64,000 bases of DNA. Origin: Narcine bancroftii (taxonomy: Eukaryota). Made by a program: the position numbers and the translations under genes. Below are positions 9,501-64,000 of the stretch, piece after piece; positions within the stretch are counted from its first letter, which is position 1, and every line of letters starts with the position of its first letter. The notes beneath the pieces were generated by a model, which saw only the letters and a program-made list of their open reading frames with translations, was not told the DNA's origin and did not search any database. The stretch spans positions 240,932,001-240,996,000 of the forward strand of contig NC_091471.1 in assembly GCF_036971445.1 (NCBI RefSeq). The letters are read 5' to 3'.

Positions 9501-12500
9501 TGGATTTTGGATTTTGGGCTGCTGATCACGAAATCACCATAAAACTTTCCTATCACATACCTTTTTTTTTTACATATAACCTATTATTGTGATTCCTGTC
9601 ATCTTTTTAACATGCTTTAAGCAGACAAAACTATGAACTGCAACATATCATTAAAAATTCTTTTTCTGCATTCGCACTTGGACGTCTTCCCTGCTGATCT
9701 TGGTACCGCCAGACAAACCTGGGGAAAAGTTTCACCGGGACACTGCGACCATGGCAAAGCGATATCAGGGGAACTGGAATCCATCAATGTTGGTCGATTA
9801 TTGTTGGACACTGACATGAGGGGCATCAGATGCTGAGTACAAACGAAAATCAGTGGCAAAATATTTTTAGGTCAGTATCATTTAGTGTCAGTATCATTAC
9901 GTGATTAAATTCCATCAAAATTAATTTAACTTTTCTCCGACATCCTACATGATACAGCAAATCTGAAATTATCTCTGTATTCAGCTTGAAGTTACCCATC
10001 ATAATCCCCAATTCAGGAAGCAAACCTTTTGAAAAAATATGTTGTCCAGCGCAATTTTATACTTGCTCCCCAAAACTAAATTTCTCTTTTTACACTCTAT
10101 TTCTTCTTGAATGTATTGTCTATTTTACAGTTCCACACAAAACTACGTTAATTTTATGCTTCTTTATGCTGGCCCTAATGCTTGGCATCCCTGAACAAGA
10201 ACAAGTTCTTGAATGAAAGATCCTAAATGGGGATTTTAGTATCCTCTTGAAACTCAGAGTTAAAACATAGAGATGCTGGTGAAACTCAGCCCGTCTCGCT
10301 GCGTACATAGGAGGTAATGAAATTGTATTCCGCCTGGGCACCCTCCAACCAGATGGCATCAACATTGAATCTGCCACCACCCACCCACCCAATCCTCTTT
10401 TCCATCTCCTCTCCTCCAGTTCCAACTCTCTCTCCTCTCCACCACCCTCTGTCACCCCTCAAAGACTGGCTGAGGTCCTCCAGCATCTCTGCGTTTTTAC
10501 TACATCACAGCATCTTTAGACTTTTGAGCTTTACTCTAAAAAAAAAATTAAGAGTTACACAGCATAGAAAAAAAGACCATCACCTGCTAACCTTCATGGA
10601 AATAATAACAGAAGCAAAACTTGGATACCGGTACTGTTCATTGCTAAATACACAATCCTTCAGAGGAGAGGCAGCAAATTAAGTTCCTGTCAATTGTAAT
10701 AAGTGCAATCTTAATGAATTTGTTTTGTTTTTAAACCCAAGAATGAAAATGAGATTTAATCTACCTGTGAAATTCTGTCAGGCGTAGTATTCTTCTCTGC
10801 ATGGGAAGTGACATTCACACTTGGTGTATCATCTTCAAGAACTTCATTCAATTCTGCCTAGAAAAGTAGTAACTTTAAAACAGTTCAGTATTATAAATAT
10901 TGGAAAAAAAACCAACAGTCAGAGTTTTAAGAAACAAAATGGATTTCAATCTGGCAGAAGGGCTTATTTCTGCCATTCGTTTGTATAGATAAATTATCAT
11001 TTGTTCAGAGAGATGTTAACCCAGTTGTACTGGAGTTCCTTTTCCTCCGACAGTAAACCTCCAATGGAAGTCAAAGTTGAACATTTTATTCCAGAAAACT
11101 AGAATGTTATTGTACTAAGATTTAGAAAATATAAAACTAGCTCTTTATTGAAAAACAAAGTCCCAAAACAATTCTAGCCAAGGAACTTATAGATTTATTT
11201 CTTAAACATGGTCATGCATTGTGTGAGATCTCCAAATCCCAATTTCTTCAGAGCATGAAGATGAAGAGAAACAACCTCTTATGCCCACAGAATGTTCCAG
11301 TCGGCCATAGAGTTAATGACAGCAGCTATGTAGAAAACAAGACGACCAATTTGTACAGAACAAGATCCCAAGAAACAAGGTGGCAGTCATTAGGCAATCT
11401 CTTATTTTCATAATTGAAGAAATACTGTTAGCCAGAACTCCAGAGGGCGATATGGAATCTGTTCTGTCTAATTTTACTTGGTCTGCCAAAAAGCAGCACT
11501 ATTTTTATGCTACACTAAAGTTACAATAAGTTGCTCTGGTCGGTGGTTAGATATAAGGCCTTAAAACTGTTCTTTGGCTGTCTCACCAGTGGCAATTCCC
11601 AGATGTTAAATTAAAACTAAGACAAGATAGAGAAAACAAATGCGTCTGAAAAGTATGATGACATACAGAGGGAGAGCAAGTAATGGCATGTGTTAGACAC
11701 ATTGGGTAGCACACAACATACATCCCTGTAATTGTGTGCCACAAGAGAATGTAATGTTAATTATGGTTAATACATTGCCCCTAACCTTTTGTACCACATA
11801 ATAAAAATGAGCTCTTCACCATAAGCATGTTGATAACATGTGGAAAATATGTTGTAGCACAAAAAGGTTGGGCCGTAATACCCCTGAATATTTTAAATAT
11901 TTTAGTCTTTACACAATCAAACTAATAAATTATTCATCAGCACTTGCTTTCTTAAATCACTAAAGTATTGAAAGCCGTTGGTGACTCGAGGCGAGGAACC
12001 CACAGACTGTGAGTGAATTGCAGTCAATGGGCTCACACTGGCTCGAGACTAACTGAAGGGGTACCAGGTATAGGAACTGAGATGCGAGAGGGAGTCAAGG
12101 GCCTAGGGCGCAGAGACCATCCTGATCATTTCAAAGGTTTGGATCTGGGGCTCAGGCGGCCGATGGATCGAACAGGAATCTGTGCAGCTACAGAGGCTGT
12201 GGGAGCGCTGGAGAAGAATCCACAGACATTCAGTGACTCTGAAGGGACTCTCCTTTGCTTTTTCTTCTTTGACTATAAGGGGCAGCAGGCAATTTCTGTT
12301 AATGGCAAACCTTTGTCTGCCTTAAGGTAGAATAAATGGAATTTCAAGTCATCACCTTTCTGTCGTTCATACCATGCATTGCATGGTAAAGACGAGATAG
12401 TTTTTCCACAGAGCAGATTTTCATAAATACAAGTTAAAACAGAAGTTAAAATATTAAGACATATACAGTAAAAGTCCACAGTATACTATCCACATATGGG

Positions 12501-22589: not shown

Positions 22590-23520
22590 GTAACTGGATT
22601 CTGGACTTCCTAACGGAAATACCGCAGTCTGTTCCATGACTGCATCGACAGGTTCAGGTCCAACAGTGTCATTATATTTACAGATGAAACAACAGTAGTT
22701 GGCCTTGTTAGCAACAGTGATGTCGCACACTACAGAGCAGAGGTGGAAAATCTCATGATATATGGTGTGAGAGAGTAACAACCTGAGTTTCAACATGGAC
22801 AAGGTGAAAGAGATGATTGTGGACTTCAGGAGGTCGAGGAATGACCATGCCCCATTATAAATCAATAGCTGCAATGGAGGGAGTAGAGATCACCAAGTTC
22901 CTTGGAGACCATGTAACTAATGATCTATTGTGGACACACATCTCCTCACTTGTCACGAAGGCACAACAGCGACTGCACTTCCTGAGAAGACTGAAATGGG
23001 CAAAACTACCAATTGCCATCGTGTCATCCTTCCACAGGAGCTCTATCGAAAGCATCTTGGCCAGCCGTATCACAGTGTGGTATGGTTGTTGCAGAGAAAT
23101 GGATCAGAGATCTAACCACAGGACCATAAGAGTGGTAGCCTTCCCAACCCTCCCCCACTGACATGATCTACCAGGATCGTTGTTTGAAGAGGGCGCGCAA
23201 AATGGTTGAGAACCCCTTCCACCCTGCACACAGCATCTTTCAGCTGCTCCTGTCGGTAAAGAGATCCAGGAGGATCAGAGCCAACACCATCAGACTGAGG
23301 AACAGCTTCTTCCCACGGGCAGTGAGACTGCTGAGCGACCAAAGGAACTTCTCATATTAACTATCCAAGACTCTCATTCTCAGAACAATATTTACTTATT
23401 TATTTCTGTGGCAATGTGAATACTTTCCCTGCATATTGTTTGTCTGTATGTGTGTTATGCCTAGTTGTGTGTCTGTGTTTTCCACCGAGGACAGGAGAAT
23501 GATGTTTTGTCATGTTCTAC
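22590..23520 (+). mobile_element. Rex1/Babar-like LINE fragment
   Basis: KAQQRLHFLRRLK...IESILAS.ITVWYG and HPAHSIFQLL...RLRNSFFPRAVRLL. Confidence 0.82.
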
Positions 23521-33800: not shown

Positions 33801-36800
33801 GAAAAAGACTGCAGAGTGAATGGATCTCAGGAAGAAGAACATTTGTCACTTCCACTTTCTCAGGTTTGTTAAAATTAAAACACATTGGGTTTTTTGGAAT
33901 TTAATGGGGTAGAAGTTGATACTCAATTTTGTGTAATCAATGGATATTGGCTTCAGTAGAATTTTGGAATCATTTGCTCTGTCCATGCACTGCCAATTGA
34001 GGACAAATTTATACTTCATTTTAATAGATTATGTTTATTCCTTTTCAAGCTCCATATAAAGGACATACACGGTAAATGGTAAAGCACTGAGGACTGCAGT
34101 AGAACAGAGAGATTTGGGAATACAGGTACACAATTCCCTGAAAGAGGTGTCAGTTAGATAGGGTTGTAAAGAGAGCTTTTGCCATATTGGCCTCTATAAA
34201 TCAAAGTACTGAGTATAGGAGTTGGAATGTTATAGTAAAGTTGTATAAGACATTGGTGAGGCCATATTTGGAGTATTGTGTGCAGTTTTGGTCACCTAAC
34301 TACAGGAAAGATATCAATAAGATAGAAAGAGTACAGAGAAGATTTACTGGGATGTTGCCCAGACTTCAGGAACTGAGTTACAGGGAAAAGTTAAACAGAT
34401 TGGGACTTTATTCCCCAGAACGTGGAAGAATAAGGGGAGGTTTGATAAAATTATGCAGAGTATAGTTGGAATAAATGTAGGTAGGCTTTTTCTACTGAGG
34501 GTAGGTGAGGACATAGGTCAATGGTGAAAGGGGAAAAGTTGAGGGGAGCTTGAGGGGGAACTTCTTCACACAGACAGTGGTGGGAATGTGGAACAAGTTG
34601 CCAGCTGAAATGGTGCATGCAGACTCAATTTTAAGAATTTGGACAGGCATGGATGGGAGAGATATGGAGGGCTATGGACTGGGTGCAGGTCAGTGGGACT
34701 AGGCAGAAAAATGGATTGGCACAGACTTGAAGGGCCAAAGGGCTTGTTCTGTCCAGTAATGTTCTATGATTCTCTGTCTTCCTCACATCTTGCTCACAGG
34801 CAAATCTAGCATAAGTACATTGAGCCCCTTCAAACAAATCATCAGTGTTGATTATAAATTTTTGTGGCTCCTACACTGATCTTGCATATATATGGTAAAA
34901 TATAAAATAAATATTCTATCAAATATCATTTTGGCTTTATTTCATTCAATTTTGAAATTTGCACCATAGAATTCAGCTGGAAAATATGTTCCGGTCTTTC
35001 AAAAGCCAAAAAATCAACGTTGTCGCAGAGATTCTTGGAAGAATTCTATTGTGAACACAAACAAAGAGGTATTATGTAGCATTTTATTTATGGGATGGTA
35101 ATATAATACTAGCTGCAGTATCATTTTTTTGTAATAAATATTGTCAATTAACTACTAAATTACAGATAAGAGTTTATATTTCTTTATTATTAGAAAAAGA
35201 CTGTGAATATTTTCTTTCTTCCTTGTTTTGTGGTGTGGTGTTACTTTATTGGTACCAATTTTTCTTCCAAATGACCTTATTTTATTGCATAAGCCCGAAA
35301 AGAAATAGCAATGGTTGTTTGACTCTGGAAGGCAACATAACAGCATGTCCCTGCCTCCATCAACATTTATGTGCACAGACCATGACAGGGGTTATAGGAT
35401 GAAAATTGAAAATCTGTCTTTCAGGCCACCAATATGAACAGTTAGCTCTTTTTTTTTCTCTCCATGTCTGCTGTCTGATCTCCTGAGTAGATAGTTTTTT
35501 TTTTCTTTTTTATTCCATCCTTCAGTTCAATGCCTTCCATTGAGATTGGAAATGTTAGCATTGACCGAAAATTGAATCTCATTTAGTGCATGAGAATAAA
35601 TGAGAGATTGTCCTTACAATCTGTCCGAGTGATACACCGCTGCAGTCTCCTACGACTCCAGTGATTATTGCAGTTTACTGGTTGGCCTGTCAAATATTTT
35701 TGTTTACTGCATCTTAGAATTATGATATACTCCCTGGGAGAGATCATTAGACTATTTTCTGAAGGTGACAATTCTGTAATTGTAAATTCTATTATTGTAT
35801 CCCTTTTGTGTAAAATAGCAGATGAACCGTAAGGATCAATGATTGTGTGCTCATGAAGGACAACAATATAAAACAAAGAATGATGTATTTCAGTAACAGT
35901 AAGCAAATAAATGAGTTAGACATGTCCTTATTTACTTTCTCTGCATTACTTAAGAGTTCAAACATAATTAAAACAGAAGGTGACGATCGTTCTCATAATG
36001 TGGTTCTTGAGTGTTCAGAATTCTGCCAAGTGCAGATATTCCAACAGACTACAGAACAAGTTGCCTTTCAATCAAGTCATCTAGATTCTGAAGTGTCTAA
36101 GGATGAGCAGCAGGAGACTTTGGCAGATAAGGATTGCGTTCAACAAGGGAGCAGTAACTGTGTATCGCTTTCAGGAATCCAACTGGGAACAGACTTTATG
36201 GACAGAGCTGGAGAAGGGTTGGCATGCTACTCAGACCCTATAAAATCTGCTGTTAATGAAGTAAGGAATAAAAGCAGCACACTGGACAACCTTCAATGTG
36301 AAATGGGTGTGCTTTGCAGCACTCCAATCCCAGTGGCTCATAATACAGTATTAGAACCACCACTAACTCAATCAGAGCTCAAAACACTGACTTTAAGCTC
36401 CTGTTTCTCTGATGCTGAGCCGAACAATGAGCTGATGCATCATTCCTTTTACCAGGAAATAATTGACAAAGTGCCAGTCACCCCTGAGGAATTGGCAGTA
36501 TCTCAACGTGAACCTGCAGAACACTCCACAGCAACAAAGGAGAATGCAGACAATGTAGAAGACAGTGTGCAAACTCCTGGGGTGTTAATGGACTTCAGTT
36601 ATAGAGAGAAGACTCCAAATGTAGTCTGTGAAAAGATGAAAGTGAAACTGTTTGTCCAAATGAATCTAAGCACAGATCTGTTTGCACAGAGTGACACGAA
36701 AGAGACTTGTTCACAACCTGCTGACCTGTCACTTGATACCAATGCTGAAAATCAGCGGGGAAACTATCATTTTAATTCTCAGTCTAACAAAATAGATGAA

Positions 36801-39800
36801 CATCGAAATGTAAATGGGAAGTTGCCAGAGTCATCCAACTCGACGAAATACCGTGCCTTAAAAAACGATAATGATTGCCAAAAAAGTTCTAATGGTAACT
36901 GTTCTGACTCAGTGAATATCACTAGCCAGTCCACAACTGACAACATAATTCTCTGCAAAGACACAAGTGGTGAAGATACTAATTTTCAACAACAACCAAA
37001 CCAATGCTTTTCAGATGTTAAAAGGATGGATATTGAATCAAAGCTACATCCTGATGACCAGGCAGAAAAGGACATAACCCAAAATCAATATCAGAAAATC
37101 GTCCAGAATCCTTGTGAAACTGGTGAAGAAACAAAGGAACAGATCCTGGAAGCATTAAGTGAAAATTATGGCAATGGTGCTTTCTCAACTGACAGTGCAG
37201 ACCAGAAATATAATACCCTTGCACACTATCAAGGAAGCTTCGGCGAACGATGCAATGGGCCCGAGTTCATTGAAACTCAGTTGACCAACTCTGCACTCAT
37301 CGACTTGCAAACTGATACATCTGAGAGCCTTGTGTGTTCAAGGAACAGCTGTATTTCTGAGCCAGATTCACACCTGGAAACTAACAATATTGAACCCCAA
37401 CTGCTGGAAACAAATATCAACCCTTTACAAACAGTTGTCTGTCCTGTCAAGAATGAAGTTATTCCTGATATTGAAGTAAATTGTCATGAGATACATTTTA
37501 GCAGTAAATGTAATGCAAAGGGGACAGAGAGTGCAAAAGAACTAATGACCGTCAATAAGATGTCATTCAACACTAATAAAGGAACAAAATGCAATAAATT
37601 GGCATCAGTAGATAACCTGGGCTTCCAGACAGAAAGCCATATGGCTGACATTGAAGCTTCAAGAAATCTAAATGGAAAAGAATTTGAGCAGAAAGTCAAC
37701 ATTAAAGTAAGGAGTGAGGATACTGTTGCAGCTTTACAATTATCCAGCAAGAGAATGGAAGATGATACAGATAGTTGTCAACAAGAAGAAAAAGTAAATA
37801 AACAGGTGCCCGATGGAGGAAATGTGGAAAGTGGAGTTGTGAACAATGATTATAAAGAGTTTGGGGTAGAAGAACAGGCAATGCACTCTTCAACAGGCCA
37901 TCCAAAGGAAGAAGGAAATGGAAATAGATCTGATCAGACAGTTTTTTCTGTGGATTTGCAACTGCGTTGTGACCTTGCGACTAGAGATGAGAGCACATTA
38001 CCCAGAGGTGACCCAAATGTAACAACCGTTTCAGTGGTCTCCTCACAATATCAATTGGATCGTTTCATCGCAAGGCATGGCGGTCTTTCAACATCCAGTG
38101 TTGAAACAGCAGATGGTTCTTCTGTTCATAGGAAACCGAACACAGAGACTGATCATAATATAAGCAACGTTGATGAATGTAAGGACTACAGTTTGTCTAT
38201 GGTCGATGAGAAATCCAGTAGGGATCAGGAGAAGAATAACGCTCAATGTACGTCAGCATCTTGGACTGTGGACCAAAACGACAAAAATGAACAGAATTCA
38301 TGCCCCACTACAAATTGTGAGGTAAATGTGCTTTTATTAACAATTATTGATAATCTTACTACATTGCACTATTCAGCCACAATTCCTCAAAGCTCTGTAT
38401 GGAAAGTTATTGAAGGAATGATTTGTTCTTGTTGCAAACACAAAGGCATGTAAGGTTACCTGTTATTATATCCACCTGCATATATTCAATTCCATGGACT
38501 CGTAAAACTAAGTATATGGAGTTATATATAACAATACAATTAGCACAAACAACCAAAGACAAATTAAGCCGTTAGCATATGATTTTACATATAAGTATAC
38601 ACTAAACCTCACACTCAAAAGGAAAAAATTCCTCCAGTTTCTAATGTGTTCATAAATATTTTGTCCTTGCATTATTTCTAGTGGTTTTTTGTCCTTTCTA
38701 ATTTTATTCATTGCCTTCTCCAATGTATTTTCTCTTATCGTGTATCTCAAAAATTTTACTAAAACGGATCTTGGTTTTTGTTGTGACTGGTTTCGGGGCT
38801 AATGTTCTGTTTGCCCTTTCTATTTCCATTCCTTCCTGCATTTCTGGCATTCCCAGAACTTTTGGGATCCATTGTTTTATAAATTCTTTCATATCTTTGC
38901 CTTCTTCATCTTCCTTAAGGCCCACTATCTTTATATTGTTTCGCCTACTATAGTTTTCCATTATATCCATCTTCTGAGCTATCAACTCCTCTGTTTCTTT
39001 AACTTTTTTGTCACTTTCTTCCAGTTTTCTTTTTAAGTCGTTCACTTCCATTTCTACTGCCATTACACATTCTTCCACATTTTCTAATCTTTTCCCTACA
39101 TCTGTTATGACCAGCTCTATTCTACTCACTTTTTCTTCTGTACTTTTCATTTTTCTTTTCATTTCACTAAATTCTAGTGTCAACCATTCTTTTAATGCTT
39201 TCATTTGTTCTTGAAAAAAAATTGTATCTATGTACTGTCCATTCATTCTACCTCCTATTCCTCTGTGCAGAGCTTGGTGTTCTTTTTTTTCTTCTTCTTC
39301 TGTGTCTGCTCTTGGGTTTGTGTCTTCTATTTCTCTTCCTTGTATCTGTGTCTCTTCTGACTTTCTTGTTGAGCTGCTTGCCTCAATTTGTTGCATTTTT
39401 TTTCCCATGGTTTCTTGATGATGGTCCTCTTCTTCTGGGTTGGTTATCTGTTGTGTCCCTAGTTTCCATTTTTCTTTCTCCCTCCTCCTGTTCTCGTTGC
39501 TTTCTTTATCTTCCAGCTGGGAGCCCTGCTGTCGGGTCTTTCTCAGCTGTTCGTGTTGTGGAGTTTCACACCACAGCTGGTCCTCCCTCCTGTCAGTGTT
39601 CTCCTTGTCGTGCGCAGTTGTGCACCCCTGATTGGCTCCGTGAGCCATTTTTGCAGTCCAGTAGTCAGTGGGTCGCGACCCTGCGGGGTCTCCACTAACC
39701 TCAGGGAGTGGGCTCCTCTTTCCACGGCGGGTCCCTGCTTTTTTGTGCAGGTAAGGCCTTCACCTTTCTCTTCCAGAGTCTTTTTTTCTTCTTTTCTTCC

Positions 39801-45800: not shown

Positions 45801-47726
45801 ACTTTCCAAAGTAAAGTAAGTAAATTTTATGTATTTGAAGTCACTTAAATGATATGTACTTAACATTTTGTACATCGGTTTAAAATTCTGTGTGAATCCT
45901 GAAGAGAAAATCATATAATAAATAATACTTCTTGTAGTAGTGAATAGTGTTGTTAATACTTTGTTTTATAAAGTTTTATTGCTGCTGACTATCCCTTAAG
46001 CAAGTGAGATAGAAATGTGTTTTCTGTGCTCAGACCTTCAATTTATACAGAAGTCTAACTCACTGAAGGCCCACAGGAAGGCTCTGATGATGGCTTTTAA
46101 GGAAATATGTATGTTATCTGGTGTATTTGGGCTCTCTGTTATAGACAGGATGAGTGAGGAGGGATTGAGCATGAGCCAAGCAATTCCGTGGGTGAGGAAA
46201 TCCAACCTCCTCACTCAATACTTGCTCCTGTGTGCATTCAGGGAGCTAGCCAAGAGCAGCAATAGATGCGGCCAACTTTGTGGCTATAATCTTTCATTAA
46301 GCTAGGAAGGTATAAAGACTAAAAGTCAAATAAAAAGTAGGAGGTAATTAGTTCATAAATGACATGTTTATGTGAACAAGGGGAAATAATGAGAGCAAGA
46401 ATTTGAGGATAGTTTCATGATTCGCTGAATTCCCATATTTACGATTAGTTTCATCTTCCAATTCTTTGACTGTTCTAATCAATACTCCATGCTCTCTAAT
46501 TACGTTCAATAAAAATAAATAATCCAAACTGGGATGTGTTCAAACAGGAAGGGTCCTGAGTCTTAAGTTGCTACATGAATGTGTGCAGCTTTGGAGAACC
46601 ACAGGAATAAAGGGGAAGCTAGTTGAGTAATCCCACGGCAGGGGAGTTTACCTTTAAGTCATTAAATAAAATATGGAGTTAAAAGAGAGCTATTTTCAGT
46701 AACTACGAGGTTGTTGAAGAATTTTCTCTGGTTGACTGAATTTCTTTGACAAATGAAAATGCTGACCTGGGTTGTTCTGGTCTGTATATGACTCTAGACT
46801 TGTTCCTCCTCAATTCCAGGGCAATTATCGATGGACAATGAATGTCAGCTAGATGTTGGATCTGTTGAAAATCACAGCTCCATGGGATGTAGCGAATGCA
46901 ATAAGTCAAGGTGCTGAAGTCCCAGATGTGAATGAGGCCAAGACATGTTTGTATTTAAATTTATCAATACAACATGGTAACAGGCCCTTCTGGCCCACGA
47001 GCTCATGCTGATCAATTATGCCTAATTGACCTACACCCCTGAAGGTTGGGAGGAAGCTGGAGCCCCCAGGGAAATGTCATGAAGACATGGGAAGAATGTA
47101 CAAACTCCTGCGTGGGATTCGAATCCTGGTCCTGACCACTGCTGTTGAAACAGCATTGCACTAACTGCCACGTTAACCATGCCTCCCCATTTCTGAAGGG
47201 CTGTTGCATTTGACTGCAAATAATCAAAACCAAATGAAACGTTGATTTTGTGATATCATGCAGTCAGTCGAACTGGTTCTTCCTTGATTATTCTGCAGCC
47301 AAATTACCGCTTTCAGAATTTAAAATGGCTCACGACTGGGAGACCATTGCAGACAGAGTCCAGAAAAGGAGTCTTCTAGTCTCTACCCAGGTGGATGAGG
47401 TCACATTGAGAGCGCCAAATACAGGAGATGAGGTTAGAGGAGGTGCAATGTCAGCCGTATTTGGTCTAGTCATACAGTGGTGGTGAGTCCTGCATGCTTC
47501 TGATTCAAGGCTGTGGGCATTCCAACCTAAGCCAAGCTGAAACGTCAAATCATTGATCATGTTTTTTTACAATTTACATTTATCTTTTAGTCGCATCATT
47601 ATGATCACACATCGGCAGCTGGAAAGCATGAAACGGCACAAGAACAGGAAAGTGAGAATGGTTGGCAGACACCCACACCAAGGAGCAACAAATGTACCAT
47701 ATTTGCCAAAGAGAAAAGATCTGTGA
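27863..47726 (+). CDS. brme1: Break repair meiotic recombinase recruitment factor 1 (BRME1/MEIOK21/C19orf57 orthologue), predicted 1063 aa
   Basis: Nine GT-AG exons join in frame: 27863-27893, 29176-29386, 33773-33863, 34970-35068, 35955-38321, 42093-42129, 43010-43139, 45726-45815, 47591-47726 (3192 nt). Recognised BRME1-like motifs: MSKRKK, LPLSQ-NSAGKYVPVFQK, and C-terminal EDATHVVCGLINELSKVNRIIMITHRQLESMKR. Head-to-head with cc2d1a and convergent with nanos, as in mammals. Confidence 0.87.
29176..29386 (+). CDS. brme1: brme1 coding exon 2
   Basis: cttcatag acceptor, AG|gtgaag donor, phase 1 to 2; in frame with track ORF 29199..29390. Confidence 0.78.
29560..31476 (+). mobile_element. Degenerate CR1 LINE (ORF2/RT fragments)
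   Basis: KSPGP, DWRVAHVV.LFKKG...NYRPVSL, GVCQGSVLG...YINDLD...KFAD in broken frames; its tail resumes at 31700-31730. Confidence 0.88.
31477..31699 (+). mobile_element. Solo LTR inserted into the CR1 tail, 5-bp TSD
   Basis: GCCTG at 31472-31476 and 31700-31704; ends ATTACA, starts TATGAT (decayed TG); internal AATAAA. Confidence 0.75.
32050..33130 (-). mobile_element. Rex1/Babar-like LINE fragment
   Basis: Minus strand shows KFADD (gtcatcggcaaactt on plus), DFSSAFNT-like segment and catgacaataaattctg tail. Confidence 0.78.
33773..33863 (+). CDS. brme1: brme1 coding exon 3 (...EEEHLSLPLSQ)
   Basis: cttttag acceptor, CAG|gtttgt donor, phase 2 to 0. Confidence 0.82.
34060..34770 (+). mobile_element. 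CR1 LINE 3' fragment
   Basis: LYKTLVRPYLEYCVQFWSP...IERVQRRFT; tail ending ttctatgattct. Confidence 0.85.
34970..35068 (+). CDS. brme1: brme1 coding exon 4 (NSAGKYVPVFQKPK...)
   Basis: catag acceptor, GAG|gtatta donor, 99 nt; conserved N-S-x-G-[KR]-[FY]-V-P-x-F motif. Confidence 0.85.
35955..38321 (+). CDS. brme1: brme1 large coding exon 5 (789 codons, acidic/Ser-Asn-rich, probably disordered)
   Basis: Inside track ORF 35847..38453; pyrimidine tract and taag acceptor at 35954; GAG|gtaaat donor at 38321; phase 0 to 0. Confidence 0.85.
38682..39961 (-). mobile_element. L1-clade LINE: 5' UTR and frameshifted ORF1 only, with 19-bp TSD
   Basis: Coiled coil followed by ENYSRRNNIKIVGLKE...IERA (L1 ORF1p-like); GTCCTTGCATTATTTCTAG at 38663-38681 and 39962-39980. 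Confidence 0.88.
40432..40980 (-). mobile_element. CR1 LINE 3' fragment
   Basis: MRGDLIDVYKLLRG...NTRGH...KFRGDIRG motif; catagaaca tail. Confidence 0.8.
42093..42129 (+). CDS. brme1: brme1 small coding exon 6
   Basis: Strong ttttgttttag acceptor, A|gtaagc donor; supplies the phase 0 to 1 change the model needs. Confidence 0.62.
43010..43139 (+). CDS. brme1: brme1 coding exon 7
   Basis: ctcctag acceptor, AG|gtatca donor, phase 1 to 2, open frame. Confidence 0.62.
43490..43700. mobile_element. Short non-autonomous Penelope-like element with inverted arms
   Basis: aaacatagaaatgctggaggaa ... ttcctccagcatttctgtgttt arms around CTGAAGA..GAAAC; relatives at 5980-6130, 8280-8710, 16560-16740. Confidence 0.6.
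45726..45815 (+). CDS. brme1: brme1 coding exon 8 (EEDATHVVCGLINELSKV)
   Basis: tacag acceptor, AA|gtaagt donor; start of the conserved C-terminal helix. Confidence 0.88.
47591..47726 (+). CDS. brme1: brme1 last coding exon (NRIIMITHRQLESMKRHKNRK...KRKDL*)
   Basis: cttttag acceptor, TGA at 47724-47726; continues the conserved helix. Confidence 0.87.
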
Positions 47727-51790: not shown

Positions 51791-54403
51791 ATGGTATTGT
51801 GCACATGGGGGTTCCAGGAGCACTTCTGTTGAGATCTAGTAGTAACCAATTAAGGTGTGCACACCCAAGCAGGCACTAAGCAATGCTCCTAAATGTGGTT
51901 CACTGGCACGGAATTCTTGGAAGGTAATTGGATAAGTCCTGAGGGGGTGCGACATCTAAAGATTCCGGGAGAGAATTGGTGATCTTTGGAGCTAGATGTT
52001 TGATATAGTGTCTGGCTGGGATTGATGAATGAAGAATGCCATGTATTGGTGGGGAGTGGGAGTTTGGCCAGGGGTGACAAGGCTATGCATCAGCTCAGGA
52101 CAGGCTGCTGCGAGGTGAGGCCAATGTGCAAGAATGGGCTTGTTGAATACCAAATTGGTGACAGGTTGCAACCTCAGAGGAACTACCTGTGGACTGACCC
52201 CTGTGTAAGATAGTCCCTTTCAAGTAATATTGAAGTAGGCTTTGGAAAAATTGTGAAATGGTGGATCATGCTTACATGGGTGAAAATGCAGAACTATTAT
52301 CCATGCATGCATTGCACAAAGCATCGAATGGAGAAGCGTGAATTTAAATTAAATAATAACAGGCCATTTTGGCCCACGAGTACTTGGCACCAATTTACAC
52401 CCAATTAGCCTAGATTCTGGTAGGTTTTGAATGGTGGGAGGAAACCAGAGCCCCCAGGGAAAACCCATGTACACAGGGAAGAATGTACAAATTCCTTACA
52501 GCGCAGGTTTCAAACCATGGTCCCAATCACCGACGCTGTAAAGGAATTGTGCGAACCACTATGCCAACTGCACCGCCCAACTTTGCAGACCTTAGAGTAA
52601 TATTTAAATCACATACAGAATAGCAATAGGCCCTTCCAGCTCATGAGCCCGGGCCACTAAAATACCCCATACATTTTGGAGGTTGGGAGGAAACTCACAC
52701 ATACACAGTTCGAACATACAAACGCTGTTCAGAGCCAGATTTGAACCCGGATCACTGGCCCTGTAATAGTGTTGTGCTAACCATGCCGCCCCATTGTTTT
52801 CCTTCGTGAATGATGGTCAACTGAGTAGGCAATACTCGATTCAAAATGCCACAAGGATGTATGGTTCCAGACATGAAAGTCTGTGCTGCGCTTACACTAT
52901 TACAAAACAGTAATGAAGTGAATTTTGGGAACTCTATTAGCGCAAAGCATTTGCAACGCCCCATGTTTGAATCCAGCGCTGTCTGTTGGAGCCTGTGTGG
53001 GTTTCCTCCGGGTGTTCTGGTTTCCTCCCACCATCCAAACGTAGGGGGGTTGTAGGTTAGTTGTAAGTTAATTGGGCCGAAAGGGCCTGTTACCCTGCTG
53101 CATGTTTGCATTTTTTTTTAATCAAAAATTCTGCTCTAATCTTGTATGCATTCAACACTTGCAGAAAGATTATATCCAATATCACCACGTTTGGCCAGAC
53201 TAATGATGTTCACATCCACTGAACCTGTAACACATCAGGGTTCTACCGTGTCATAGAATAAAAACCTTAGAAATTTGACCTTTTTAAAAAAAAAAAAATC
53301 ACAATAACTTTTAACTAAACATTAAAAACTTTTTTGTTTTATCCACCATGTCTGCAAGTCAGTCTCTGGGATTAGTGATCACTTATCAGGTTGGCAAAAA
53401 CTGCAGATGCTGGAATCCTAAACAGGACACTGGAAGAACTCAGCAGTAAGATCCATGGAGGCAGGAGGTGCAAGTTAACATTTCAGGTCAAGAGCCTACG
53501 CAAGATCAGAGAGGGAAGCTCCACTTTTTATTGCAGCTACTTTAGACCTGACCAAGTGTGCTTCTTAATCATGTCAGCAGCTACTAAATGATAAATGGAA
53601 AAAGTTATAGTTATTAATAACTATAAATGCAAAAAGATAACAAACATACACCATATTCACACACTCTACATACACAAAAGGCTCAGTATGTTAGGCACTT
53701 AAGCTGTTAGTTTTGACACTGGGCAGCTACTTAAATATGCCAATGTATAGGATGATCAGAAACAAAATTTTCACCTTAAAAAAAAAAATCAGGGTTGTCC
53801 TATAAGCTGGATCTAAAATGCATACCTTGATGGCGAAGTCTCAACACCACCAGCATCTTCCTGCCAGTTTTGATGCAATCTTGCACATGCTGTTATCAGT
53901 GAAGTCTCAGCACTCCCCCACGGTGTCCATCCGCCCAGTCAGACTGCTGTAGGCTCTGTACAGGCCTTAAAACGGCCTGTTACAGGAGCCAACAATGGAT
54001 TTCGTTTTAAAACATGCAAATAAAATTAAAACCTTTGCATGGTAATTATGCTGTGCTTTTAACTGTATCCACTGGTCAGTGGTAAGTGCCAAATTTGCCA
54101 AATTGTGGATTTATACAAAGGCATTGCTCAAAAAACCTACATTTTGGGTGGAAATACCAGTGTTATCCTATCTAATGGCATATTCAGTATTTGGTGGAAT
54201 ACGTCAGCTAAATGCTCAAAACCAAAAGCTGAGTCAAGGCAATATCTAGAATAACCACAGGATTGGGCTTGACTGTACAATGCTTACAGAAATAATGACC
54301 ATTGAACATTACTGGACTCAAAAAGAAACTATGCTCTATTTTAATACAAAGATGTTTCCATTTTAAAATCACTTTCACAAGACAAAGGTTTTGAAATAAC
54401 AAT

Positions 54404-54409
54404 TTTATT
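54404..54409 (-). promoter_or_regulatory. Candidate poly(A) signal of nanos3
   Basis: AATAAA on the minus strand about 330 nt after the stop, ending a U-rich tract. Confidence 0.45.
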
Positions 54410-54612
54410 GAGAACAATTTAAATTGACACATTGAAATGTAGTGACAGTATAATTTTTCCATTTTTAGGAATTACTCACTTTCAAATATTTACTCCAAAC
54501 TCCCATGACTAAAAGCATGAGCTTTTACTAAATATTACATACATCAACAACAGAAAGACAAAACGATGATGAATTCTACACTTCCAACATTAATCATATT
54601 AAAAAAAAACAC

Positions 54613-54709
54613 TAAATAAAGAAACTGTAATGTTTGCTCTCTACATCATCAGCTGTTAAATGTAAAGTTATTTTTGTGGATTTGGTGTGAATCAGTCACA
54701 TTGAAGACA
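54613..54709. repeat. 97-bp direct repeat, copy 1 (nanos3 3' UTR)
   Basis: Matches 55778-55874 at 94 of 97 positions. Confidence 0.93.
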
Positions 54710-54741
54710 TTAGAGCATTTTTTAAAAAAGTTTCAAAATTC

Positions 54742-55599
54742 TTAGTCTCTTGCTGCTTTCTTATACATTGATCTATAGTTACCTTGCAGATGACAGAAAC
54801 GTTTTGTGTGAGCCTTGTCCCCAGTTGCATGGCACAGTGGACAAATGTATTGACGCAGAATTGGACAAACAATCTTGCCATTCACATCTTTAAGAGCATG
54901 TGAGGTGTAGGTGTTTTTTGACTCTCCATTTCGTTTACAGAACATGCATTTATTTGGGTCTTGACCGACTTTGGAGGTGGACGGTGTATTAGTAAAATCA
55001 CCGTTTGATGTTTTTCCCCTGAGGAGCAGGGCATTTCCCCCACTGTGAACAACTGAAAACTCACAAGGTTCTTCTGTTTCCATCAACAGGCAGCTCTGGA
55101 AGAAATGATCTTTCAGTAAATTATTCCTCTTTATCGCCCCCTTCTGTTTTGGTGCCAGATTATTCATTCTGTTGAATTCACAGCCAAAGAAACCAGCTTG
55201 CCTTTCTGCACTACAGTCGCAAGCTATGGGATAATGAATCCATGGAAAATGTTGCAATTCTGTTGAACCATCGCACAAGTGATGCTCCTTCATGTGTTCT
55301 TTGCGATGCATCTTTTCTAGGGCATTATCTGTCAACCACAGGCCAGTCCCAGGTTCCATGGTCAGAGCTTCTGCTTCATGTTGTTCCTTAGTTACGCTGT
55401 TCTCTGGAATGGATTGTTCCCTTTGCCTGAACTCGCTCAGTACCCTCCAGCTTTGCGTGTCATGCAATCCAGTGCTCAGTTTTAACCTCATGGTTTCTGT
55501 TCCTGAATACCTTGGTTTGTGCCGAGCTTCAATCATATCCTGCACCACCTTGTTCAGCTCCAGGTAGTCAGTCCATATGTTGTACCCAGAGTTTGCCAT
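54742..55599 (-). CDS. nanos3: Nanos-family CCHC zinc-finger RNA-binding protein, 285 aa from ATG 55599; nanos3 by synteny
   Basis: N-terminal NOT1-interacting-like motif YNIWTDYLEL and C-terminal double CCHC finger CMFCKRNGE...H...CPILRQYICPLCHATGDKAHTKRFC in one uninterrupted ORF. An upstream in-frame ATG exists at 55671. The paralogue name rests on position between brme1 and miR-181. Confidence 0.9.
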   Translation of the reverse strand: MANSGYNIWTDYLELNKVVQDMIEARHKPRYSGTETMRLKLSTGLHDTQSWRVLSEFRQREQSIPENSVTKEQHEAEALTMEPGTGLWLTDNALEKMHRKEHMKEHHLCDGSTELQHFPWIHYPIACDCSAERQAGFFGCEFNRMNNLAPKQKGAIKRNNLLKDHFFQSCLLMETEEPCEFSVVHSGGNALLLRGKTSNGDFTNTPSTSKVGQDPNKCMFCKRNGESKNTYTSHALKDVNGKIVCPILRQYICPLCHATGDKAHTKRFCHLQGNYRSMYKKAARD

Positions 55600-55777
55600 G
55601 GGTTTTGTGCTTATCAACAAGTGTCTGGTCTCACTCAAGAGGGGGGTTACCTTTAAGACCAACTCCTGCATTGTTATCAACTGAATGACAGGATTGGTTA
55701 AAGATTGTTATCAGTCTCTGATGTGTGATCTGGCATGTCCTTTAAAACTGTTTAATTGACCATAATATATATATATA

Positions 55778-55874
55778 TAAATAAAGAAATTGTAATGTTT
55801 GCTCTCTACATCATCAGCTGTTAAATGCAAAGTTATTTTTGTGGACTTGGTGTGAATCAGTCACATTGAAGACA
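55778..55874. repeat. 97-bp direct repeat, copy 2 (upstream of nanos3 ATG)
   Basis: Matches 54613-54709 at 94 of 97 positions; abuts a (TA)n tract. Confidence 0.93.
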
Positions 55875-58439
55875 GTAAGTAATATCATTCTTGGCTGCTG
55901 TTGCAGCAGATAAAAAAAACTCAAGACATTTCAAGTGTTAGAAGAACATCAGCTACACTCCCCACACCTCCAGCTCCCTTCCCGCTTTCTCTCTGTAGTT
56001 CAATGGTCTTCCATTAGACAGCCATTGGTCTGCCTGAAACCTGTTGGTCTTTCGGAATGTTGCTGATTGACACGGAGGCTTGGTGCAGCCAATGCAAGGG
56101 CGCTGTGGGGAAAGAGTCTAAAGTCCTCCCATTAATGAGCAATGAGGGGCTGAGACGGAGGGGAGGGGGTCCCTCAACAAACAGAGGGAGAAGCAACGAC
56201 AAGTGCCACAGTGATGGTAACAGGTATTCAGAGAACAAATGTAATAGTTTTCAGATTTATTGTCAGAATACATACAACCCCAAGTTTCCTTTTCCTGAAA
56301 GCAAGGCAAAAAAGTGTACAAATGTAAACAACTGACTGCTGTATAGAGAGGAAAATAAGGTGCAAAATTAAGTCCTTAAATGATCTCCAGTGGGCTGCTG
56401 GAGACTGGCTCATGAGAACCAGGTGTTGGAACTGGAAATTTGAGAGGATGTCAAGGGCTCCCTAAGGGCCCTGGGCACTGAAGGCTTCCTTATTGTGTTG
56501 GAGATTTTGGACCTGTGCTCAGATTGCTGATGCCTTGATCTGGAGTCTGTGGGAGTGCTGGAGGCGATTCTATGAACACTTGTAACTCGGTGAGGGGTGG
56601 GGTTGAAAAACACGCTCTTGCTTCTCTTTCTCTGACTGTAAGGGGTGCCAGGCAATGCTAAAGGCAAATCTTCATCTTCCTTATTTGCAGACTAAAGGCA
56701 ATTCCGTGATTGTTACATTTTTGAATTAATCTGCAATAATTAGGAGTTGTTAATGGGAAGGCTTGTTGAAGGAGCTGTGTACCATTTTTATTATCATTTA
56801 CCTTCTGGAAAAAGATTTTCTTTATATTTTAGATCACACTTAAAGTTGATCTTGTATGTAAAAAAAAATTACATGACAATATACAACATCTGATCAGCAG
56901 TTTGAGTCACTATTCCTGCTGCAGAACTTGGGAGTGTGCTAATCAGCCATCGTCAGCAATAGTTAGCTCCTTTATCGGAGTTATTTTAGCATTCAACTGC
57001 TACTTTAAGTAACTGAATTATTACAAGAGGTGTTAACTATCCCCTTTATTTAACAGGTGCCGTGGCACAGAAGCCAAACATCAAAGATTTCAGCCGTTTT
57101 GTCAGCTGCAATCAGCAGGTGAGACCAAGAGTAGATTAGATCTCCACTATTGTCAAAAGTGACATTCAGAAATGGAAATCCCCATGCTCAGTGAAAATAA
57201 ATGGGAAGAAACAGCTTTGATATTGTAAGTAGCTGCCTCAGCTCTTCTAAGGCAGCTTTGGGTGGAGGGCATTTGGCTCCAGTTCCCTGGGCTACCAGAC
57301 GTCTGGGAAAGCTTTTGTGGGTTCTGCACACTCCACCCTAACTGGGAAAAATGGAACTCGACAGGATGTGTGGGGGAGTGTTTCAGGTGTTCTGTGTCCC
57401 CAGCTGGGGCTCGACAGGACATTGTGTGATCCTAGTGATCAGAAGAGGTATCGGGGCCACAAGACCCACACCACCAGGTTCAGGAATAGCCGCTCCCCCT
57501 CCACCATCAGACTCCTCAACCACAAACTCAATCAGGGACTCATTTAAGGACTCTTAATTATGCACTTTGTTTTATTCTTCTCTGTATTGCGCAGTTTCTT
57601 TACATGTGAATGTCGAATACATTTTTTTTGGTAATTCTGCCTGGCCCACAGGGAAAAGAATCTTACCGTTATGTGATGTCAGGGATGTACTCTGACAATA
57701 AATCTGAAATAATTCTTGCCTCTACGGGCATACCTCAGCACCCTTTCTGCCATTTCTCCACTGCAAGCAATCTCATGCCAAAGATGCAGACCAGTTGTTG
57801 AGGATGTTACACTCCCCCCCACTTCCCCCTCCAGGGAGAAAGTCCTCGATGGATTTTATTTTCCCTCCTGGAGACTGGGCTCAAGGGGCTCGTTTTGTGA
57901 GTTTGGTGTCAGAAATGCAGACTGCATGCACTGCTCCAACCAGAGATCAAGGTTACTGTCTCCGGTCCTGTAAATCATTTCATACAATAGCACAGATGAC
58001 TGAACAGGACTTGCAAGAAACAATCAGATTTCAGAGTCCATTCATGACATCGCATACAGCACTGTGATTTTTTTTTCCTGTGGCCGCGACAGGATGACCA
58101 CTTATTGGTAAGCATAAACATTTGATTGTGCAATAAGAGGAAAAAATGTCAATGAAATACAAAACTAAGAGTCCATTGAGCAGCACGGGCTTGTGGTTCA
58201 AAAGGGCCTGTTTCCATGCTGTATGATTACATTAAAATTAAAACTCAACAGCTTTGCATTCACTGCATTTTTGGTCTGTTCACTCGCATACTTTATCCTA
58301 AAATAATAATTTCTGAAATAAATCTTATTTGAATCTGAAAATATCTAGTACTACCCTAACCATGATTGTCTGCACCACTGTAATATATCTTTCTCCCCAC
58401 CCCCCCCCACAAGCTGAATATTTACCCATTGTTTTAGGT

Positions 58440-60138: not shown

Positions 60139-62690
60139 CAACCCCCAGCCCGACTGGCCTCCCGACTTCAAACCCCCAGCCCGACTGGCCTCCCGACTTC
60201 AAACCCCCAGCCCGACTGGCCTCCCGACTTCAAACCCCCAGCCCGACTGGCCTCCCGACTTCAAACCCCCAGCCCGACTGGCCTCCCGACTTCAAACCCC
60301 CAGCCCGACTGGCCTCCCGACACCAAACCCCCAGCCCGACTGGCCTCCCGACTTCAACCCCCCAGCCCGACTGGCCTCCCGACTTCAACCCCCCAGCCCG
60401 ACTGGCCTCCCGACTTCAAACCCCCAGCCCGACTGGCCTCCCGACTTCAAACCCCCAGCCCGACTGGCCTCCCGACACCAAACCCCCAGCCCGACTGGCC
60501 TCCCGACTTCAAACCCCCAGCCCGACTGGCCTCCCGACTTCAACCCCCCAGCCCGACTGGCCTCCCGACTTCAACCCCCCAGCCCGACTGGCCTCCCGAC
60601 TTCAAACCCCCAGCCCGACTGGCCTCCCGACTTCAAACCCCCAGCCCGACTGGCCTCCCGACACCAAACCCCCAGCCCGACTGGCCTCCCGACTTCAACC
60701 CCCCAGCCCGACTGGCCTCCCGACTTCAACCCCCCAGCCCGACTGGCCTCCCGACTTCAACCCCCCAGCCCGACTGGCCTCCCGACTTCAACCCCCCAGC
60801 CCGACTGGCCTCCCGACTTCAAACCCCCAGCCCGACTGGCCTCCCGACTTCAAACCCCCAGCCCGACTGGCCTCCCGACTTCAAACCCCCAGCCCGACTG
60901 GCCTCCCGACTTCAAACCCCCAGCCCGACTGGCCTCCCGACTTCAAACCCCCAGCCCGACTGGCCTCCCGACTTCAAACCCCCAGCCCGACTGGCCTCCC
61001 GACTTCAAACCCCCAGCCCGACTGGCCTCCCGACTTCAAACCCCCAGCCCGACTGGCCTCCCGACTTCAAACCCCCAGCCCGACTGGCCTCCCGACTTCA
61101 AACCCCCAGCCCGACTGGCCTCCCGACTTCAAACCCCCAGCCCGACTGGCCTCCCGACTTCAAACCCCCAGCCCGACTGGCCTCCCGACTTCAAACCCCC
61201 AGCCCGACTGGCCTCCCGACTTCAAACCCCCAGCCCGACTGGCCTCCCGACTTCAAACCCCCAGCCCGACTGGCCTCCCGACACCAAACCCCCAGCCCGA
61301 CTGGCCTCCCGACACCAAACCCCCAGCCCGACTGGCCTCCCGACACCAAACCCCCAGCCCGACTGGCCTCCCGACTTCAAACCCCCAGCCCGACTGGCCT
61401 CCCGACTTCAAACCCCCAGCCCGACTGGCCTCCCGACTTCAAACCCCCAGCCCGACTGGCCTCCCGACACCAAACCCCCAGCCCGACTGGCCTCCCGACT
61501 TCAACCCCCCAGCCCGACTGGCCTCCCGACTTCAACCCCCCAGCCCGACTGGCCTCCTGACTTCAAACCCCCAGCCCGACTGGCCTCCCGACTTCAAACC
61601 CCCAGCCCGACTGGCCTCCCGACTTCAAACCCCCAGCCCGACTGGCCTCCCGACTTCAAACCCCCAGCCCGACTGGCCTCCCGACTTCAAACCCCCAGCC
61701 CGACTGGCCTCCCGACTTCAACCCCCCAGCCCGACTGGCCTCCCGACTTCAACCCCCCAGCCCGACTGGCCTCCCGACTTCAAACCCCCAGCCCGACTGG
61801 CCTCCCGACTTCAAACCCCCAGCCCGACTGGCCTCCCGACACCAAACCCCCAGCCCGACTGGCCTCCCGACTTCAACCCCCCAGCCCGACTGGCCTCCCG
61901 ACTTCAACCCCCCCAGCCCGACTGGCCTCCCGACTTCAACCCCCCAGCCCGACTGGCCTCCCGACTTCAAACCCCCAGCCCGACTGGCCTCCCGACTTCA
62001 AACCCCCAGCCCGACTGGCCTCCCGACTTCAAACCCCCAGCCCGACTGGCCTCCCGACTTCAAACCCCCAGCCCGACTGGCCTCCCGACTTCAAACCCCC
62101 AGCCCGACTGGCCTCCCGACTTCAAACCCCCAGCCCGACTGGCCTCCCGACTTCAAACCCCCAGCCCGACTGGCCTCCCGACTTCAAACCCCCAGCCCGA
62201 CTGGCCTCCCGACTTCAAACCCCCAGCCCGACTGGCCTCCCGACTTCAAACCCCCAGCCCGACTGGCCTCCCGACTTCAAACCCCCAGCCCGACTGGCCT
62301 CCCGACTTCAAACCCCCAGCCCGACTGGCCTCCCGACTTCAAACCCCCAGCCCGACTGGCCTCCCGACTTCAAACCCCCAGCCCGACTGGCCTCCTGACT
62401 TCAAACCCCCAGCCCGACTGGCCTCCCGACTTCAAACCCCCAGCCCGACTGGCCTCCCGACTTCAAACCCCCAGCCCGACTGGCCTCCCGACTTCAAACC
62501 CCCAGCCCGACTGGCCTCCCGACACCAAACCCCCAGCCCGACTGGCCTCCCGACTTCAAACCCCCAGCCCGACTGGCCTCCCGACTTCAAACCCCCAGCC
62601 CGACTGGCTCCCGACTTCAAACCCCCAGCCCGACTGTCCTCCCGACTTCAAACCCCCAGCCCGACTGGCCTCCCGACTTCAAACCTCCAG
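60139..62690. repeat. 31-bp minisatellite (CAAACCCCCAGCCCGACTGGCCTCCCGACTT), about 82 copies
   Basis: Directly visible head-to-tail array with a few recurring variant units (..gacACCaaa.., ..ttcaaCccccc..). Confidence 0.97.
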
Positions 62691-63258
62691 CTGCGAGGAC
62701 GGACCCAGTGCTACTGAACAACAAAGCCCCAGCTGCAGAGAAGGCACAGTGCTACCCCCAGCGAGGGTGCAGATCTACCAGCCAACAAGGCCCCGGCCCC
62801 CAGCGAGGGCCCAGCACTACCAGCCAAAGAATTTTCCTCTGCCCTGCCAAAATATGGTAACTCTGCCTGGCCTGCAGGAAAATGAATTTCAGGGTTGTGT
62901 GTAATGTCATGCATGTATTCTGACAAAAAAAAAATTTGAAACTGCATGGCATCTTTCTTGTACTTTGGAAGAAACTCCCTACTGGTCTGCTCTATCTCTG
63001 CATTTTCAATACACCTGACAACAAATGAACTAGAGATAAGACTTCACAACCTTCTGGCCTGCAGAGAACGAGCACCAATAGTTGTATCACCCATGGGTCA
63101 CTTGATGCAGTGCTTGAAATGGATTGGGAAGAGAAACCCATCGGTTAGTATTGTGATACAAATGCAGCCGGATGACCTCATATTCTCCTCCGGGGAGGAG
63201 GGGGTCTTAGTTCCACAGTAACATGTCACACCGCCTGGCATGAAGGATGTACTATCCA

Positions 63259-63334
63259 GCCACAGTTCCACTCATTGGTCAGTGAGTTTCCCATCATCCA
63301 CAACCCACCGACAGCAATGAATGTTGATTGTGGC
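63259..63334 (-). ncRNA. mir181: miR-181 family pre-miRNA (miR-181b-type mature sequence at the miR-181d position)
   Basis: Minus strand 63325-63302 reads AACATTCATTGCTGTCGGTGGGTT (miR-181b-5p). The 3p arm CTCACTGACCAATGAGTGGAA lies at 63286-63266, and basal GCCACA/TGTGGC pairing closes the hairpin. Confidence 0.95.
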
Positions 63335-64000
63335 CTTTACCATTAGGTGATCACCAAAGTGACCGATAGCCAACTGAGCCTGTCCCCGATCCCAATGCTC
63401 TAATATTCCTCCATTGAATTGTAAGCTTTCCTACTATACACTGTTTCCTTTGAAGTTTACTTCCAATAGACCTACAGGCAGGTTGAGATCATTAAAAACA
63501 CACCTTAACTGGAACTGTGAAGATACATCACACCAGCGAATTAGCTTGCAGCACATGAAAAAGTTTAGTGAGAGTGCAAAAGCCAGTGAAAATAAAGGCA
63601 TGACCATAGCCATAGTGTGTGTCCACACACAAACAAAAATCAAGATACAAGAAACACCAGGAGTGTGCAGAGTGAGAATCAGTCAATAACAGCAAGAAAC
63701 AGAGTGTGAAGCTTCCAGATGCTGTAAATTGGACTGGAAATGTCGAACTCAAGTTGTTGCAGCTAGGGGTAGATTCAAAATGGATACCTCCATGAGTCGC
63801 AAGTTCTAAAGCTCAAATTTTGTTGTTATAAAAGAACCCAAGTTTCTTTATTACAATAAAAGAAACAAAGATTGGAAGCTGGCAAACACAAATTATTTAA
63901 GATGACCAAGAGTGAAATCAGGAAACCTTGGATGATTTGGCCCATGTTAAAGGAAGGTAGGGAAAACACTACAATCGATCATTGAAACACATCTCCCTTC

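Follow-up and report, generated by a model that had tools for sequence, protein, structure and literature searches.

A two-copy 97-bp direct repeat enclosing nanos3 in the ray Narcine bancroftii: probably an old repair-mediated duplication

How did a segment of the nanos3 3' UTR of Narcine bancroftii come to have a near-identical twin upstream of the same gene, and does the pair endanger or serve the gene that it encloses? We approached the question in the window, the whole 64-kb stretch of DNA analysed here, and in the 3.33-Gb genome. Self-BLAST of the window returns a 97-nt direct match (E = 9e-42) with a spacing of 1165 bp and a gap of 1068 bp, and no third copy within the window. The 3 differences between the copies are all transitions, at repeat positions 13 (C/T), 51 (T/C) and 69 (T/C), and they divide the 97-mer into exact runs of 12, 37, 17 and 28 bp. 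One copy starts 33 nt past the stop codon at 54742-54744 (with 32 nt between), and the other lies 179-275 nt above the ATG at 55599 (Table 1). An earlier note on this DNA had given the coordinates, the three substitutions, the spacing of 1165 and the lack of another copy in the window exactly, and its placement of the copies (33 nt after the stop and about 180-275 nt upstream of the ATG) is likewise borne out.

A genome-wide search with a 121-bp query, in which very common words are skipped, gave 2 matches, namely the two copies, so that the 97-mer is not the high-copy dispersed repeat that the same note had thought worth guarding against. With the same skipping of very common words, the whole of 54380-56010 (1631 bp) matched itself only; repeat families did surface for other queries in this search, and none for the nanos3 97-mer. 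The ends of the repeat are sharp: an anchored gapped alignment of the 60-nt flanks beyond them stays at shuffle level (24/200 and 76/200 shuffles reach the observed score), and an older, longer duplication surrounding the 97-mer was dropped as this comparison gives it no support. The repeat matches no Rfam family and its RNA fold is no better than that of shuffles (z -0.08 to +0.99). Among the matches listed for literature on nanos3 in shark, on fish gene structure and on tandem duplication or copy number, where most subscription papers fall outside the scope, the repeat is undescribed.

The enclosed ORF is, by sequence and gene order, a single-copy nanos3 at its ancestral syntenic place, because of its zinc-finger identity (81% to the skate and white shark proteins, as against 58-63% to the genome's two other nanos genes), its neighbours mir-181, BRME1 and CC2D1A, and the linkage of cc2d1a to nanos3 reported across jawed vertebrates (PMC5932020, including its supplement S2). 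The gene name, assigned at first from the letters, was thus right. The ATG at 55599 aligns with the start of the white shark protein; starting instead at an in-frame ATG at 55671 would lengthen the protein by 24 aa that are absent from the orthologues. The genome yields 3 zf-nanos matches among 64 candidates scored, and no further nanos3, whether as a frame or as a fragment, was found there. The two other zf-nanos genes we take, from their motifs, to be nanos1-like and nanos2-like, the latter lying on contig C522; we likewise take PDB 3ALR to be zebrafish Nanos3, and BRME1 and mir-181 to be neighbours of human NANOS3. A genome-wide search for the Brme1 family gave no match and was uninformative. 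A metagenome scan with the nanos alignment found 5 loci at 36-59% identity in the zinc finger only, none of them an elasmobranch nanos3. Elasmobranch Nanos3 proteins are long (264-285 aa) with a fast-evolving middle part, and the skate and white shark orthologues carry the NCBI label 'uncharacterized protein'. Two nanos1 genes are reported for chondrichthyans (PMC5932020), and only three zf-nanos genes were found here, so that this ray may have lost one nanos1 paralogue, or the assembly may lack it or the search have missed it.

Table 1. Features of the repeat pair, the nanos3 gene and its neighbourhood (positions in the window)
Feature	Position	Strand	Evidence
UTR-side copy, putative donor	54613-54709		match; both flanks joined in DNA contigs
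Upstream copy, putative acceptor (inserted)	55778-55874		match; both junctions in X1 and X3 DNA contigs
Longest identical core, 37 bp	54626-54662, partner 55791-55827		exact-run count; own 37-nt contig
(TA)7 tract abutting the upstream copy; last TA common to the repeat end (2-bp overlap, candidate microhomology)	55766-55779		sequence
4-bp tandem duplet on the nanos3 sense strand; + strand reads as splice-donor-like GTAAGT	55875-55882		sequence
nanos3 ORF, 285 aa, coding region intronless	54742-55599	-	ORF, zf-nanos, orthologue alignment
CCHC-CCHC nanos zinc finger (PF05741)	54790-54948	-	Pfam profile
Likely poly(A) signal of nanos3 (AATAAA), beyond the bracketed unit	54404-54409	-	motif scan; predicted
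ATTAAA within the unit; in a tandem or circular product it would come after the repeat	55751-55756	-	motif scan; inference
mir-181 precursor, upstream of nanos3, same strand	63256-63336	-	Rfam RF00076, 65.9 bits
BRME1 last coding exon, convergent with nanos3, stop ~6.9 kb from the repeat	47592-47726	+	Pfam Brme1 27.3 bits, cut-off 27; translation
Frame with CC2D1A DM14 exon	6914-7321	-	Pfam PF21528 33.7 bits, cut-off 24.6

Several other features of the window lie around the gene. An 875-codon open frame at 35826-38453 (+) has no Pfam match and is probably a large internal BRME1 exon, and a 31-bp minisatellite at 60140-62691 (82 copies at 97% identity) lies between nanos3 and mir-181. A Pfam ALKBH8_N match at 22817-23158 (+) falls in a frame that we presume to be LINE-derived. 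At 56016-56300, 140 bp above the upstream copy, is a high-copy repeat (contig depth in thousands) that resembles a degraded LINE 3' end on the + strand, and to this LINE-like repeat belong the CCAAT- and GC-box-like motifs of the interval; about 55990-56016 may, we assume, be a short inverted 5' piece of a LINE, as in twin priming.

Are both copies really present? For two real copies, contigs built from 31-letter words are predicted to comprise a left contig ending at 54655, a 37-nt core, a 1188-nt unit and a right contig starting at 55798. In the DNA runs X1 and X3 the break points fall as predicted, the unit contig measures 1188 nt in both, and the contigs contain each of the four junctions as well as the bases that tell the two copies apart. 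Depth, used only as a ratio of adjacent contigs within one DNA run and not equated with copy number, is 24 in X1 for the core (a separate 37-nt contig), 11.3 for the unit with the ORF and 10.9 and 11.8 for the flanks; in X3 it is 11.4 for the unit and 11.3 and 11.4 for the flanks. A read-depth check over 54613-55874, which the earlier note had proposed and which was run here on the contigs of the two DNA runs, thus finds the unit at flank depth and only the core doubled. Because the four junctions are in the contigs, the ORF stands at flank depth and the shared 37-bp core alone is doubled, the repeat is real, and a collapsed array or an assembly artefact is largely ruled out for S1, the sample of these runs. 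X1 and X3 possibly come from the assembled source sample and so test the assembly, not the population.

In a second sample, X5 (RNA by guess), a contig at 54655-54806 joins the end of the ORF to the UTR copy with 0 differences and with that copy's bases. The pieces from X5 and X7 (also RNA by guess) lie in the ORF and proximal UTR only, outside the region of the upstream copy, and X6, which bears the label of another organism, is matched over 808 bp in 5 pieces with no differences, at positions outside both copies.

Here, we propose that the two 97-bp copies are most probably the product of a single old repair-mediated local duplication. We hold this view because the size, the spacing, the two-copy status and the lack of poly(A) fit the class of duplications described as proximal RDs, as the (TA)7 tract at a junction may also do, and the repair-templated copy is the best fit of the three origins that had been offered for the pair. 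A DNA break on one side of nanos3 would have left an end that invaded sequence about 1.2 kb off, on the other side of the gene; 97 bases would have been copied from the invaded template and the end then rejoined, presumably by synthesis-dependent strand annealing or a related microhomology-primed template switch. Templated insertions of other kinds (polymerase theta end joining, FoSTeS/MMBIR) also draw on a local template and carry microhomology and slippage-like filler, those of polymerase theta being typically shorter than 97 bp. The nanos3 pair may resemble these products in its local template, microhomology and filler, and the enzyme is not identifiable from sequence.

Proximal RDs have been described in vertebrates as two copies of at least 50 bp, separated by over 50 bp but under 5 kb (Pace, Sen, Batzer, Feschotte 2009; PMC2671141). 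Their spacing peaks at about 1200 bp, perhaps partly driven by method according to the authors, and their median length is 147 bp; junctions show microhomology, filler or small deletions, with poly(A) tails in 0/39 of those inspected in primates, and 11 have donors in 3' UTRs (PMC2671141). Their reported density per Mb of transposon DNA is 0.62 in human and 0.19 in zebrafish (PMC2671141). The nanos3 sequence has one other place in the genome, is at least 50 bp long, non-tandem and less than 5 kb from its twin, and has no tail and is not a transposon. It is like the published examples in its two copies of 97 bp, in a 1068-bp gap near the ~1.2-kb peak, in its lack of poly(A), and in the precedent for 3' UTR donors (PMC2671141); the 2-bp TA overlap and the filler-like sequence at one junction may correspond to their microhomology and filler. 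It is unlike them in that published RDs are insertions in transposons, by which donor and acceptor are fixed, whereas here the DNA is unique and the polarity has to be inferred (PMC2671141). The survey, in the sections that concern us, has no cartilaginous fishes, and the nanos3 pair differs also by enclosing a whole ORF. The 'doublets' of Thomas et al. 2004 (via PMC2671141) are likewise short, near-identical, non-tandem and closely spaced, but doublet surveys, as summarised there, deal with identical or nearly identical pairs of less than 100 bp, and the nanos3 pair has 3 substitutions.

Which copy is the original? Tracts of (TA)6 or more occur at 21 per Mb, so that the chance of finding one no more than 2 nt from any of the four junctions is about 4e-4, and both the (TA)7 tract and the 4-bp duplet, as read from one genome, may represent a break site or filler. 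Because they stand at its junctions, the upstream copy would be the likely acceptor, and copying from the 3' UTR to upstream, which the earlier note had taken as given, is the direction that we moderately favour from this one genome. The composition of the repeat (A 0.36, T 0.33) departs less from that of the upstream region (A 0.35, T 0.28) than from that of the distal UTR (A 0.31, T 0.43), which would weakly favour the opposite direction. Also on that side is a T9 run that starts 3 nt past the UTR copy, of relevance to the tail criterion solely in the case of the UTR copy being the acceptor. Neither end of the upstream copy has a poly(A) or poly(T) tail, and no target-site duplication was seen. 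A GTAAGT at 55875-55880 (+), antisense to nanos3, starts exactly where the upstream copy ends, the motif having a frequency of 0.14 per kb in the window; it is likely a chance occurrence, because no matching acceptor was found for a back-spliced RNA template.

How unusual is such a pair in this genome? As a background we took 160 samples of 10 kb from the same contig (1.6 Mb), 40 beside the window and 120 spaced along the contig, and looked for pairs 50-5000 bp apart with a length of 60 bp or more and an identity of 90% or more, this identity having to exceed that of every other match in the sample by 8 points or more. Setting aside five rows of L155 and L156, unchecked, as large-unit tandem arrays left 12 events; 7 of the 12 were checked against the genome, and 4/7 passed (L042, L046, L131 and L160). 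L160 is a near twin of the nanos3 pair: direct, 109 bp, 94% alike, with a 660-bp gap and two copies genome-wide. L131 (85 bp) also has only two copies genome-wide, L046 (141 bp) is 99% alike locally and at most 78% elsewhere, and L042, a 424-bp inverted pair (7511-7934 and 9136-9557) some 170 kb beyond the window, is an old repeat fragment that is 99% alike locally and at most 86% elsewhere. The genome check turned L120 and L157, and L061 from a looser first pass, into members of repeat families, and L145 sits inside a large array. That array, a segmental one of about 1.2 Mb at G000:C8 252.9-254.1 Mb, has at least 40 matches of one 155-bp piece; those of L155 and L156 are tandem, with units of about 2.4-2.6 kb and identity up to 100%. 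Local duplicate pairs are common in this genome, at a density of 2.5 per Mb for the checked pairs (95% CI 0.7-6.4) or 5.6 per Mb with the five unchecked events included. Direct pairs are rarer here than inverted ones, being 1/4 against 3/4 of the checked pairs, or 1 in 1.6 Mb (CI 0.02-3.5 per Mb). For any one ORF of 858 bp, the probability of being enclosed by such a pair works out at about 0.1-0.2%; low as this is for a single gene, it is not low across a genome that has short genes and exons by the thousand.

Could the pair have arisen in another way? An artefact of assembly or a collapsed array of the 1165-bp unit is exceedingly improbable. Assemblers can be misled where short repeats adjoin (TA)n tracts, and phase is lost in contigs at the 37-bp core, but the contigs contain the four junctions and the bases diagnostic of each copy, and the unit is at flank depth in 2/2 deep DNA runs. 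The collapsed tandem array that the earlier note had entertained therefore finds no support (ORF contig depth 11.3-11.4 vs 10.9-11.8 for the flanks), nor do the X1 and X3 contigs, which hold both copies' junctions, show the artefact of raw reads with one copy. A stump of a tandem nanos3 duplication, another of its proposals, supposes a head-to-tail duplication of the 1165-bp unit, after which the first copy was lost but for its last 97 bases. The direct orientation and order are as this would lead one to expect, and the end product is identical to that of an insertion, so that insertion and tandem duplication with exact deletion are inseparable by sequence alone. We nonetheless think the stump unlikely: two events are needed, with a deletion that spares just the 97-mer, 55875-56020 has no similarity to the ORF or proximal UTR (187/300 shuffles score as well), and with no second nanos3 frame or fragment found in the genome there is no remnant, there or in the window, to support it.

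It is improbable, too, that an old cis-element shared by the upstream region and the 3' UTR of elasmobranch nanos3 has been kept alike by gene conversion or selection. A divergence of 3.1% is old for a slow-mutating lineage, and two skate Nanos3 proteins lie on Logan contigs of 1171 and 1170 nt, near the 1188 nt of the unit contig; those lengths could hint at a similar repeat in skates, but are equally to be expected if the contigs are mRNA, as they may be, and count here as a coincidence of length alone, one of the proteins lacking its first 17 residues. Such an element is also hard to square with sharp ends that show no older diverged extension, with a TA tract that resembles a scar, and with the absence from the repeat of any Rfam family, unusual fold or GCACTT seed, most U-rich motifs falling outside it. 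Direct repeats of about 100 bp, one end of which reads TG, might recall a small LTR element with its terminal repeats, or else a dispersed repeat that inserted twice. LTR elements and TRIMs are defined by TG...CA termini, a target-site duplication, a primer-binding site and polypurine tract, and multiple genomic copies. The nanos3 pair has two matches only in the genome-wide search, in which very common words are skipped, its other end reads TA where CA would be expected, inspection by eye shows neither a target-site duplication nor a primer-binding site or polypurine tract, and the gene stands at its ancestral syntenic position, which leaves this reading next to no credence. Very little more can be given to an RNA template, that is, to a piece of nanos3 mRNA, or a spliced antisense RNA with an exon end at 55874, that was reverse-transcribed and captured nearby. 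The upstream copy does end exactly at the + strand GTAAGT, LINE reverse transcriptase frames are present in the window, and nanos3 is a germ-line transcript in other vertebrates (PMC5932020). But there is neither a poly(A) tail nor a target-site duplication, the junction of the UTR copy has no AG or pyrimidine tract (+) for a back-splice acceptor, and the match runs on at 2 of the 3 bases that follow, so the boundary need not be the donor; among primate proximal RDs, 39/39 of those inspected lacked marks of retrotransposition (PMC2671141).

In light of the pair being, as we propose, a repair-mediated duplication, how old might it be? The copies diverge by 3/97, or 3.1% (95% interval 0.6-9.0%). 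The mutation rate of the epaulette shark is reported as 7e-10 per base per generation (PMC10587355), and at this rate, which is another species' and not this ray's, the age comes to some 22 million generations (range 4.6-65 million), and a rate of 2e-9 per year still gives 1.6-23 million years. The duplication would thus be millions of generations old and not a segregating recent variant, and the description of the pair as a recent event is unsupported, 3/97 differences amounting to 4.6-65 million generations at the epaulette shark rate. It is also probably neutral and harmless.

As with the low-copy repeats behind non-allelic homologous recombination, a gene that stands between direct repeats could be deleted or duplicated by them (PMC2583991), and the earlier note had seen in promoter and ORF a cassette that unequal recombination might delete, amplify or circularise. 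For efficient recombination, unbroken identity over 134-232 bp is reported as necessary in mouse cells, and over 300-500 bp in human meiosis (PMC2583991), whereas the best unbroken identity at nanos3 is 37 bp. A working cassette that deletes or amplifies nanos3 is unlikely because this longest perfect match lies below those lengths, and the depth of X1 and X3 shows no change in copy number of the 1165-bp unit. Events on matches of less than 50 bp have been seen at alpha-globin repeats 5 kb apart (PMC2583991), and recombination between the copies, deleting or circularising 1165 bp, is possible in principle and should be rare. Deletion of the ORF would likely be purged, because it removes a germ-cell gene.

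What would such a unit contain? Between the upstream copy and the start codon it has 178 bp, and a candidate splice acceptor at 55681 would place the upstream copy in an intron. In a motif scan with the customary definitions of poly(A) signals and U-rich motifs, most U-rich motifs and the AATAAA fall outside the repeat, and the unit would lose them. The working elements of the teleost nanos3 3' UTR are described as U-rich regions and a miR-430 site (PMC5412271). The GCACTT seed of miR-430 is absent from the non-coding parts of 54300-56020, including the 3' UTR at 54300-54741 (-), and the canonical seed is also reported absent from the nanos3 3' UTR of cod, salmon and flounder (PMC5412271). A + strand AATAAA at the start of the repeat was considered as the end of the BRME1 transcript and dropped, the BRME1 stop being ~6.9 kb away. 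We give very slight credence to the reading that the repeat is old, conserved across skates and rays and kept for function, either as the same element at both ends of the transcription unit or for loop-out or tandem amplification of a minimal nanos3 unit in germ cells. That minimal unit may consist of the ORF with 178 bp upstream, a truncated 3' UTR and the internal ATTAAA, without the distal U-rich controls.

Thus, the old repair-mediated duplication that we favour adds one cartilaginous-fish example to a described class of duplications, and is notable only for enclosing an essential germ-cell gene, nanos3. The repeat pair could serve as a lineage marker among rays. It would carry much greater weight if both copies were conserved across batoids or if germ cells showed a change in copy number, and it marks a rare natural spot at which one 1165-bp deletion would remove nanos3 entirely, an event measurable in sperm.
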